Below the pieces are notes generated by a model. That model was given only the letters and a program-made list of their open reading frames with translations. It made no database searches and had not been told where the DNA came from. This document shows, one piece after another, positions 41,884 to 43,669 of a DNA stretch of 64,000 nucleotides. Where the stretch lies: assembly GCA_947259495.1 (NCBI GenBank), contig CAMYLV010000005.1, forward strand, positions 55,401 through 119,400. The letters run 5' to 3'. The DNA comes from an uncultured Desulfobacterales bacterium (GTDB lineage: Bacteria > Desulfobacterota > Desulfobacteria > Desulfobacterales > JAHEIW01). The translations under genes were made by a program, and so were the position numbers. The first letter of the stretch is position 1. The number at the start of each line of letters is the position of its first letter.

Positions 41884-41938
41884 TGTTTATGCTAAATATG
41901 CGGCTCTGTCAAGAAAATTACCTACCGGTAGGTAATTT
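41884..41938 (-). promoter_or_regulatory. sigma70-like promoter with an adjacent perfect 24-bp palindrome (candidate TetR operator)
   Basis: AAATTACCTACC|GGTAGGTAATTT at 41915-41938; TTGACA (41912-41907)-N17-TAAACA on the minus strand. Confidence 0.75.
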
Positions 41939-41966
41939 ATGCCATTTTGATACTCAAAATGCCGGC

Positions 41967-42037
41967 GGACAGAGGACAGAAGAATAAACGTCAGATTTTG
42001 AAAAGGGTGAGTGGCAAGCGTCAGCTAGTGGTTTGTG
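41967..42037. repeat. Short-period repeat block
   Basis: CAGAGGA CAGAAGA (same units as 5367-5415), then GTGAGTG GCAAGCG TCAGCTA GTGGTTT. Confidence 0.5.
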
Positions 42038-42255
42038 GTCTTATGCGGGCTTGTTGTTCGATCAGGTAAGGATGGTCCACAACACATAAATCACAAGCAT
42101 TCCCATTCCGTGGGCTTACCTGGCGGGCATGGAACTGGACCGCAAATGGCATGCGGATTTACAGTGAATGGCAAGCAGAAACATGAAAGCCGGCAACGGG
42201 ATCTACCCCCCTGCCCGTTACGGCGTTGTGTTTTAAATGAGTGATGATGTCAGTA

Positions 42256-42322
42256 TGGAGCGGGTGCAGGAATCGAACCTGTCTGTGACCTTGTTAGGCC
42301 TCGCTCCCCCAAGAGCCCCCGC
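42256..42322 (-). ncRNA. tRNA-Gly-like element (degenerate or minimised tRNA, 67 nt)
   Basis: GCGGGGGCTCTTGGGGGAGCGAGGCCTAACAAGGTCACAGACAGGTTCGATTCCTGCACCCGCTCCA: GCGGG/CCCGC acceptor, T-CCA end, GCTC/GAGC D-stem, CAGG-TTCGATT-CCTG T-arm, damaged anticodon arm. Confidence 0.6.
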
Positions 42323-42419
42323 TCAATGATGGTAAGGGAAGAAGGGGGTTGGGGTTCCCAAAGGCACATCAATTTTAAAGATAAAAGGGGTAAAATGAGA
42401 ACCCGCCCCCCAGCCGATA

Positions 42420-42480
42420 GAAGTGTCTGCTGCGAGCCGAACCTAAGCGTTGAAGGTCGAGGTCTCCGCAGACACTCTTC
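42420..42480. other. ~60-nt hairpin, probably part of a non-coding RNA
   Basis: AGTGTCTGC (42422-42430) / GCAGACACT (42468-42476) with an inner ACCT/AGGT stem. Confidence 0.55.
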
Positions 42481-42742
42481 GCAAATTGCAAAAAATATGC
42501 CATCAGCATGTATTTATATTTATGTATATATATCGATAGGTTAAAAAAATATAAAATTTTTAAAATTTTATAATTGGGTAATCAATGCCACAGTTTTATC
42601 ACTTAAATTACATAACATTAGGACTTAGATGCCAGGACATTTGATATTTAGCAACTATGGCGTTGTCAATCTTTACGCCATTTTGTTAAATTATTGTCTA
42701 ATTATTTTTGACAACCTATCCACCCTATGTTATGTTCCTGCC

Positions 42743-43669
42743 ATGGTCGATGATCGCAAAATACATCCTATCGGTTATGTCGCCCGCCAGACAGGCTTGA
42801 GCGCGCATGTGATCCGCGCCTGGGAAAAACGCTACGGTGCGGTGCATCCCGGTCGTACGCCCACCGGTCGCAGGCTGTATTCTGAAAGCGATATTCAGCA
42901 CCTGCAGCTGTTACAGCAAGCCTGCAAAAGGAGTCATCGCATTGCGCAGTTGTCTGATTTGGACAACACCACGCTTCGCGGAATTATCGCCAGCAAATTG
43001 GCAGATGCGGGTCCGATGGTAGCGCATCCGGTGGAGCTCTTCACACCGGTAGAATTACTTGAAGCCTGCCGTGCAGCCGTTCTCGCTATGGATGAGCAGG
43101 CGTTTGAGGCCACCTTAAACCGGGCGGCCGTCATGCTGACGCGGCCGACGCTGTTTGAAGGCGTGATCATGCCACTGGTGGTGGAAATTGGCGAGCGCTG
43201 GGTCAACGGGGAACTTAAAATTATCAACGAGCACATGGCTTCCACAATTCTCGTCTCATTCTTACGGGATATGCTTTCCGCTTTTCGACCGCTGCCGCCA
43301 ATGCCTAAAATGGTCGTTGCGACCCCTGTGAACCAATGGCATGAGCTGGGTGCTTTGATTGCTGCCATCGTGGCAGCAGAGGCCGGGTGGGGGGTATATT
43401 ATTTTGGTCCCAATTTGCCGGCTGAAGAAATTGCCGCTGCTGCCGTATACAAAAATGCCGTGGCAGTTGCACTCAGTATCGTTTACCGCGTCTCTGAAAG
43501 GCAGACCTTGCGCGAAATAAGTCGTTTACGCCATTACGTGTCCGAAGACGTGGCCATTATTGTCGGCGGGCGTGGTGTGCAGTCCTGCCAGGCGGACCTT
43601 AAGCAATTGAACGTGATGTATCCGCAGAACATCTCCGAATTTCGTGACATGATCGACGAACTTGGATAA
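42743..43669 (+). CDS. MerR-family regulator with a cobalamin-binding domain (CarH/LitR-like)
   Basis: MerR HTH (IRAWEKRYG, RTPTGRRLYS); W-x9-EH motif; HELG B12 His motif; start chosen at ATG 42743. Confidence 0.88.
   Translation: MVDDRKIHPIGYVARQTGLSAHVIRAWEKRYGAVHPGRTPTGRRLYSESDIQHLQLLQQACKRSHRIAQLSDLDNTTLRGIIASKLADAGPMVAHPVELFTPVELLEACRAAVLAMDEQAFEATLNRAAVMLTRPTLFEGVIMPLVVEIGERWVNGELKIINEHMASTILVSFLRDMLSAFRPLPPMPKMVVATPVNQWHELGALIAAIVAAEAGWGVYYFGPNLPAEEIAAAAVYKNAVAVALSIVYRVSERQTLREISRLRHYVSEDVAIIVGGRGVQSCQADLKQLNVMYPQNISEFRDMIDELG

Follow-up and report, generated by a model that had tools for sequence, protein, structure and literature searches.

A tRNA-Gly-like element as the predicted 3' domain of a conserved sigma-54-type RNA in an uncultured genus of the Desulfobacterales

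Anatomy and origin of the tRNA-like element

The locus lies on the minus strand of a 64-kb window, i.e., the whole stretch of DNA that was analysed, from an uncultured Desulfobacterales genome (G000; 4.4 Mb in 69 contigs). It comprises a sigma-54 type promoter motif, a conserved non-coding block that ends in a 67-nt tRNA-like element, and the decayed remnant of a small secreted-protein gene. On the upstream side, the divergently oriented gene at 42629-43669 (plus strand) codes for a CarH-like, light- or B12-responsive regulator of the MerR family that carries two B12-binding domains; its adjacency to the RNA is common to several relatives, not to all. On the downstream side, a perfect palindrome (41884-41963, with the core TACCTACCGGTAGGTA near 41918-41940) lies upstream of a TetR-RND efflux operon, is kept in most relatives and is probably a TetR operator.

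The tRNA-like domain occupies positions 42256..42322 of the minus strand and was delineated by sequence reading, a covariance model and folding. Read 5' to 3', the minus strand from 42324 to 42256 is GA followed by GCGGGGGCTCTTGGGGGAGCGAGGCCTAACAAGGTCACAGACAGGTTCGATTCCTGCACCCGCTCCA. A 5-bp acceptor stem, GCGGG/CCCGC, is formed by 42318-42322 with 42260-42264, the D arm (42303-42316) has a 4-bp GCTC/GAGC stem and a 6-nt loop containing GG, and the T arm (42267-42281) has a 4-bp CAGG/CCTG stem and a TTCGATT loop. The anticodon-like arm (42287-42300) reads GGCC-TAACAA-GGTC, with a loop of 6 nt, and its consensus form is GRCC-N6-GGUC. U73 is found at 42259 and an encoded CCA at 42256-42258, whilst nucleotides 8-9, i.e., the connector, are absent. 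The acceptor/T stack is irregular, with 5 bp followed by a G.A mismatch or bulge and then by a T stem of 4-5 bp. Nonetheless, the four-arm cloverleaf was the minimum-energy structure in all five of the element variants that were folded. An earlier note on this DNA had listed the acceptor, U73, CCA, D stem, 6-nt D-loop, GGCC-TAACAA-GGTC arm, 4-bp T stem and missing nucleotides 8-9, and every one of these features is indeed present in the sequence. Its suggestion that the acceptor can extend to GAGCGGG/CCCGCTC was correct in that the pairing is possible, but the extra GA/UC corresponds to the -2/-1 leader and is the least conserved pairing.

By ARAGORN, no tRNA or tmRNA gene was predicted in the whole 64-kb window, and Rfam 15 gave no match to the element at gathering score. 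A permissive Rfam search returned tRNA-Sec (RF01852) as the sole relevant match, at 25.2 bits against a cut-off of 47 and in an alignment that has deletions in place of the D and anticodon arms. The hallmarks of tRNA-Sec are an 8/5 or 9/4 acceptor/T geometry, a long variable arm and a UCA anticodon. A tRNA-Sec identity was rejected at this score, and the genuine tRNA-Sec(UCA) is encoded at C10:107008-107105. The features of a canonical elongator tRNA (RF00005), namely a 7-bp acceptor, a U8-N9 connector, a 7-nt anticodon loop with U33 and a 5-bp T stem, are likewise lacking. The ARAGORN- and Infernal-type searches recommended in the earlier note thus returned nothing and sub-threshold matches, respectively, while our own covariance model R1, built from 20 versions of the element, scored it at 74-98 bits in 18 of 21 genomes of the genus. 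The element is real and tRNA-shaped, yet it is overlooked by standard annotation.

The second-best R1 match in every genome was a genuine tRNA-Gly(GCC), at 35 bits, and no other tRNA was matched at E<1e-4. In G000, which has 46 ARAGORN tRNA predictions, 42 of them with an encoded CCA, tRNA-Gly(GCC) (C10:152916-152990), tRNA-Gly(CCC), tRNA-Sec and a normal tmRNA are all encoded elsewhere than the element. Side-by-side comparison showed the element to be tRNA-Gly(GCC) minus 8 nt, of which three were lost around positions 6-9, one from the D loop, one from the anticodon loop, two from the variable region/5' T stem and one from the 3' T stem. All four stems were kept, in agreement with the earlier remark that stems were preserved despite deletions across the arms. 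Common to both are G1-G5/C68-C72, U73, CCA, the GACC/GGUC anticodon stem, C50-G64, G52-C62, G53-C61, the T-loop pattern and a -2/-1 leader GA, which precedes G1 of the element and of genuine tRNA-Gly genes alike. The genuine tRNA has U8/A9, a UUGCCAA loop and a sigma-70 promoter, whereas in the element the loop has 6 nt, the T stem is 4 bp long or bulged, the acceptor/T junction contains a G.A mismatch and the promoter motif is of the sigma-54 type. In several species the element loop is UAGCAA, corresponding to the parental UUGCCAA less one C. Relative to the parent, compensatory changes were found at 10-25 (A-U to G-C) and 51-63 (G-C to A-U), showing that pairing was upheld after duplication. 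On sequence comparison, the element derives from a duplication of the tRNA-Gly(GCC) gene, is 8 nt shorter and is no longer able to decode.

Elsewhere in G000 (C15:58683-58997 and C22:24430-24529), ARAGORN called odd tRNAs that have no encoded CCA, i.e., Asp(AUC), Val(AAC) and a 100-nt Ile(GAU). They could represent erroneous predictions, genes with introns or additional tRNA-like elements.

The longer RNA and its promoter motif

Comparison with relatives by BLAST revealed a single conserved block, running from approximately 42614 down to 42255/42256, and in every genome carrying the element the similarity ended exactly at the A of the CCA. A second covariance model, R2, matched a whole conserved non-coding RNA at 42256..42482 (minus strand) with 238 bits, its 3' end being the encoded CCA at 42256. 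Judged by the distance from the -12 element, transcription is predicted to start near 42477, and the RNA would then measure about 222 nt.

RNAalifold and single-sequence folds concurred on the domain layout of this RNA, all on the minus strand. At its 5' end, RNAalifold identified a bulged hairpin (42424..42474) in which 8 of 15 pairs had changes on both sides among 56 distinct sequences. It is followed by a single-stranded conserved linker, CUUCUAUCGGCU (42412..42423), whose unpaired columns are nearly invariant, and by a long middle hairpin, GGGGG.CGGGUUCUCA ... UGGGAACCC.CAA.CCCCC (42344..42411), which was recovered by RNAalifold, by single-sequence folding and through covariation. The middle hairpin has a C-rich internal loop and an apical UACC/GGUA hairpin; its basal helices covary and its 9-bp core is never broken. 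Between this hairpin and the tRNA-like domain are a CU-rich tract, UUCUUCCC, and a variable AU-rich spacer ending in the leader GA (42323..42343), which form the most variable part of the RNA and contain many indels.

A sigma-54 type -24/-12 promoter motif, TGGCATATTTTTTGCA, was identified at 42487..42502 (minus strand) by pattern match and conservation. It is one of only two matches to TGGCAY-N5-TTGCW in the 64-kb window, where 0.26 would be expected, and it possesses the -24 GG, the -12 GC and the spacing of a sigma-54-dependent promoter, so that, judged by sequence, it is a putative promoter of this type. Within the conserved block its sequence is invariant. Every one of the 50 metagenome loci with enough flank has the motif, 180-193 nt ahead of G1, and it was present in 17 of 19 aligned genome sequences, the exceptions being one contig that is too short upstream and one locus (G003) with a different leader. 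The genome encodes rpoN and about 25 NtrC-type activators. Alignment of 48 distinct upstream regions also showed an AT-rich conserved block with GTAAT/ATTAC half-sites (42572..42607, minus strand), located about 85-125 nt upstream of the promoter motif. This block is a candidate enhancer (UAS) for a sigma-54 activator; no convincing second site of its motif was found elsewhere in the genome.

Between the sigma-54 motif and the tRNA-like domain, no sigma-70-type promoter recurred in relatives, and the one weak sigma-70-like match near the locus was unconserved in them. No intrinsic terminator was found in the surrounding 950 bases. Taken together, the data indicate that the element is not a stand-alone gene but the 3' domain of a structured RNA of some 222 nt behind a sigma-54-type promoter motif. 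The earlier note had recognised the tRNA-like element itself; its place at the end of a longer sigma-54-type RNA, as well as the small ORF that usually follows, went unseen.

Conservation, distribution and the downstream gene

For the selection analysis, 68 matches, corresponding to 56 distinct sequences, were aligned to R2. In this alignment 97.8% of cells pair and 13 pairs changed on both sides, with none of 500 shuffles reaching any of the measures; given that the alignment was fitted to the model and that the sequences are related, these covariation counts are supportive and not formal proof. Nearly all of the covariation came from two places, the 5' hairpin and the basal part of the middle domain. 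In the tRNA-like domain, only 6 of 40 stem columns varied (mean minor-allele fraction 0.011), as against 25 of 30 in the stems of the 5' hairpin, and the variation fell in the D loop and the 6-nt loop, at positions 26-27 and in the variable region (paired versus unpaired, Fisher p about 0.001). The T-loop, the D-loop GG, the pairs G1-C72 to G5-C68, U73 and CCA were invariant; the three nucleotide features that the earlier note had singled out as kept, i.e., U73, G1-C72 and C2-G71, are thus identical across the 56 distinct sequences. The tRNA-like part was the most conserved segment of the locus, with 89-100% identity versus, in most pairs compared, 22-70% in the adjacent spacer. This pattern amounts to tRNA-grade sequence constraint on the tRNA-like domain, as opposed to the decay of a pseudogene.

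Among 21 genomes of an uncultured Desulfobacterales genus of sulfate-reducer-related sediment bacteria, 18 carry the RNA, as a single copy. The remaining three are fragmented MAGs in which the neighbouring TetR gene is missing too, and the locus is therefore probably unassembled in them. A metagenome scan identified 51 additional sediment contigs that carry the RNA. When 148 other genomes of the order were searched with R1 and R2, nothing except genuine tRNA-Gly(GCC) was detected, and in complete genomes of the sister genus the TetR-RND locus was present and the RNA absent. A search with the exact structural pattern across GTDB release 232, in which each of 185,579 species was represented by one genome, yielded 17 matches in the genus and three unrelated ones. 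Two Actinomycetota MAGs (L041:7313-7370 and L043:4893-4950) share a sequence of about 58 nt, GAGCGGGGCTCGACCGGAGC...GTGGGTTCGACTCCCAC...GCGCCA, with a T-arm-like hairpin, a pattern match that is unrelated to the element. The G003 locus (contig C223, L039:2129-2197) keeps the tRNA-like part alone, with a canonical 5-bp T stem, on an AT-rich, gene-poor contig. Here, a different leader of about 95 nt, with a sigma-70-like TTGCAA/TATAAT pair, stands in place of the sigma-54 RNA, and this copy could be relocated or represent an older arrangement.

In 43 of 63 distinct loci, the CCA is followed by an intact ORF that starts exactly 15 nt downstream; the ORF was lost in 19 loci and one contig was too short. 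The gene encodes a protein of 66-70 aa, in which a signal peptide ending AEA|G is followed by some 20 aa of mature sequence and by a C-terminal IP(W/L)P-hydrophobic-RRKG tail, and its translation is coupled to that of a PilZ-domain gene. Next in order are the gene for a 109-aa membrane protein and the TetR-RND operon. The small secreted-protein family is genus-specific, and its tail resembles a sorting signal (L040:2241-2441, L142:1501-1713 and about 40 other loci). Against the PEP-CTERM model PF07589 the small ORF scored only 14-16 bits, the cut-off being 20.7, and it was far below the cut-offs of the NCBIfam PEP-CTERM models; no exosortase (EpsH, TIGR02602) was found in G000 or in five ORF-bearing relatives. 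A tie of the ORF to a Gly-tRNA-dependent transferase through PEP-CTERM, exosortase, PrsR and FemAB found no support, given the sub-threshold domain, the lack of an exosortase and the lack of PrsR or FemAB above cut-off.

In the window itself, only a decayed remnant of the small secreted-protein gene is present (42131..42254, minus strand), as shown by comparison with relatives and by tblastn matches in two frames. Its first ~93 nt, including the ribosome-binding site, start codon and signal peptide, are deleted from 1 nt after the CCA, the remainder is frameshifted, and the PilZ and membrane protein genes are missing. A companion to the earlier note, covering 42030-42480, had described the hairpins and had extended the candidate RNA beyond the CCA, where only decayed coding sequence was found. 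Across the relatives, at least nine distinct and independent ORF lesions were observed, comprising 5' deletion, internal deletion, loss of the start codon, a premature stop, complete replacement and direct fusions to PilZ, and the RNA was kept at every ORF-less locus. Within an ORF-less clade, divergence amounted to 12-26% in the upstream domains and to as much as 56% in the spacer, with 55-56 of 60 pairs kept; the tRNA-like domain was 97-100% identical, versus 74-88% for the rest of the RNA. These losses, together with the G003 locus, show that the RNA, and above all its tRNA-like end, is selected independently of the downstream gene.

Possible functions and relation to known systems

The reading that we prefer, and to which we give an even chance, is that the element is a tRNA mimic handled by the enzymes of tRNA maturation. 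Transcribed together with the upstream domains, it would be cut by RNase P 5' of G1 (42322), and 3' trimming would halt at the encoded CCA (42256). A structured 5' RNA of about 155 nt, which has no terminator of its own, would thereby gain a defined 3' end, and a stable 67-nt CCA-ended mini-tRNA would be released; only in genomes that retain the genes would a third product arise, namely the downstream small-ORF/PilZ mRNA, separated from both RNAs. One or more of these products may be active. Retained in the element are the top half of a tRNA (acceptor and T arm), the D-loop/T-loop elbow, the glycine identity nucleotides of the acceptor end and the encoded CCA. Given that there is no terminator nearby and no recurrent sigma-70-type promoter, 3'-end formation by processing would be the simplest route, and the covarying upstream domains have the appearance of a functional RNA for which a defined 3' end is required. 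On the other side, the acceptor/T stack is irregular, so that RNase P may not accept it. Structure alone would suffice for an RNase P signal, but here the stems are nearly frozen in sequence, suggesting additional sequence-specific partners; similarly, the retention of the tRNA-like part alone in G003 points to a function in the mini-tRNA itself. A complementarity search of the window's own genome for sRNA targets gave chance-level matches only.

One alternative, which we regard as possible though on the unlikely side, is a glycine-accepting or GlyRS-binding mimic, which would either be charged by an alpha2beta2 GlyRS via the acceptor stem and serve off the ribosome as Gly donor to a transferase, or bind GlyRS or further proteins specific to tRNA-Gly as a sigma-54-induced decoy or regulator. 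The genome encodes GlyQ, implying a heterotetrameric E. coli-type GlyRS, and E. coli GlyRS is said to charge acceptor-stem microhelices, in work attributed to Francklyn, Shi and Schimmel from 1992. The stem sequences of the element, beyond their pairing, are frozen, as in real tRNAs with several protein partners, and the mini-tRNA is all that the G003 locus retains. Amongst the determinants of bacterial tRNA-Gly, i.e., U73, G1-C72, C2-G71, G3-C70, C50-G64, G10, C35 and C36 (PMC9976931), the acceptor pairs and U73 are, like CCA, invariant in the 56 distinct sequences, and C50-G64 and G10 are kept too. C35 and C36, however, are missing, and the loop is free to vary (UAACAA, UAAAAA, UAAUAA, UAGCAA, GAAUAA and others), its GC dinucleotide being kept by some species only, as UAGCAA; charging would thus be inefficient at best. 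Moreover, the locus lacks any link to an aminoacyl-tRNA-dependent transferase, no member of the FemAB family associated with PEP-CTERM having scored above cut-off, and mascRNA, the closest architectural analogue, is not aminoacylated (PMC9976931). We consider doubtful the more elaborate proposal of a sigma-54-controlled, anticodon-less glycine acceptor RNA, recognised and perhaps charged by GlyRS via the acceptor stem alone, that would be freed, as a 67-nt mini-tRNA, from a bifunctional precursor also containing a separate regulatory 5' RNA and would work off the ribosome as a glycine donor or as a condition-specific decoy or sensor for GlyRS or other proteins that bind tRNA-Gly.

The spacing of the ORF, exactly 15 nt after the CCA wherever it is intact, would also suit a cis-acting 5' leader that governs translation or stability of the small secreted-protein/PilZ operon and is left over where the ORF has gone. 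Long leaders behind sigma-54 promoters are documented for genes of the PEP-CTERM type (PMC1569441), no -35/-10 sigma-70-type match was found downstream of the sigma-54 motif in the window, and the CU-rich tract of the leader could mask the ribosome-binding site. However, loci in which the ORF has been lost, by at least nine routes, still have the RNA and promoter, and an ORF-less clade that diverged by up to 26% upstream still has its pairs and a near-identical tRNA-like domain, as expected of purifying selection without the gene. The deletion in the window, moreover, begins 1 nt after the CCA. We therefore regard the cis-leader as improbable. Least probable by far is a decaying tRNA-Gly pseudogene that hitch-hikes in a conserved intergenic region, or a tRNA-3'-end att remnant of an integrated element. 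Such origins would account for deletions in every arm, for the failure of ARAGORN and the Rfam cut-offs to capture the element, and for gene content past the CCA that varies as it does beside tRNA-borne islands. Yet the element is the best-conserved segment, substitutions avoid its stems, and the downstream variation consists of deletions of resident genes. An integration-site remnant was rejected, in that both acceptor strands are present, whereas att remnants keep the 3' part only, and in that the flanks read contain no direct repeat of the 3' end and the neighbouring genes examined no integrase. The earlier note had favoured a selected tRNA mimic over random decay and had named, as what would speak for an ordinary pseudogene, relatives that carry an intact tRNA or nothing conserved. 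The relatives carry the same miniaturised element, and the near-frozen stem columns, the compensatory changes at 10-25 and 51-63 and survival through the downstream gene losses bear out its preference.

Eukaryotes (MALAT1-mascRNA) and viruses offer well-known cases of tRNA-like modules that draw in the tRNA-processing machinery for the shaping of other RNAs; in bacteria, to our knowledge, such modules are known mainly from tmRNA and phages. tmRNA is processed by RNase P and charged via acceptor-stem identity alone. Like the element, it is a bacterial RNA whose 3' end consists of a T arm, acceptor strand and CCA, with a reduced D region and no anticodon. In tmRNA, however, the acceptor stem forms between the two termini of the entire RNA, and there are a G3.U70 pair (alanine identity), a tag reading frame and pseudoknots, whereas the element is a local cloverleaf with G3-C70, U73 and no tag frame. 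Identity with tmRNA, including its two-piece forms, was rejected, as the real ssrA (RF00023) lies elsewhere (C25:118133-118488, 193 bits) and conservation at the element stops at the CCA instead of running past it.

The closest parallel in design is offered by MALAT1-mascRNA and NEAT1/MEN-beta of vertebrates and by GUT15 of Arabidopsis (PMC6152437), in which a tRNA-like fold stands at the 3' end of a longer non-coding transcript. In these systems, an RNase P cut sets the end of the upstream RNA and frees a CCA-ended tRNA-like RNA of about 60 nt; the corresponding cleavage here is one that we infer. The element shares with them a small tRNA-like fold with an unconserved, degenerate anticodon loop at the 3' end of a terminator-less non-coding transcript, as far as the predicted RNA extends. 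They differ in being eukaryotic Pol II transcripts that are non-homologous to the element, which in turn lies on a bacterial chromosome behind a sigma-54-type promoter motif, has an encoded CCA and clear descent from tRNA-Gly(GCC), and is often followed by an mRNA. The likeness is thus best viewed as an analogy of design and not as homology. As for protein partners, mascRNA binds an aminoacyl-tRNA synthetase (PMC9976931).

YrlA, a bacterial Y RNA-like RNA, and the tRNA-like or anticodon-less elements of phages are likewise non-decoding mimics within longer transcripts, and are thought to recruit tRNA-processing or -modifying enzymes. YrlA differs by a closed acceptor-like stem without a free CCA and by its pairing with Ro/Rsr, while the phage elements are mobile and often multi-copy, in contrast to the chromosomal, single-copy, genus-specific and sigma-54-linked element. 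We found no description in the literature of a chromosomal sigma-54-linked RNA with a tRNA-derived 3' domain, and standard tRNA and Rfam annotation overlooks such genes. If the mini-tRNA were charged, it would be a rare dedicated non-ribosomal aminoacyl carrier that is made on demand. Set beside these systems, the locus presents a recent and traceable case in which a housekeeping tRNA-Gly gene appears to have become a non-decoding module, fused to a sigma-54-type chromosomal RNA and held under purifying selection. It can also be viewed as a natural experiment on the non-translational features of a tRNA, in which the acceptor end, elbow, T arm and CCA were kept, and the connector, the loop sizes and the anticodon proved dispensable.
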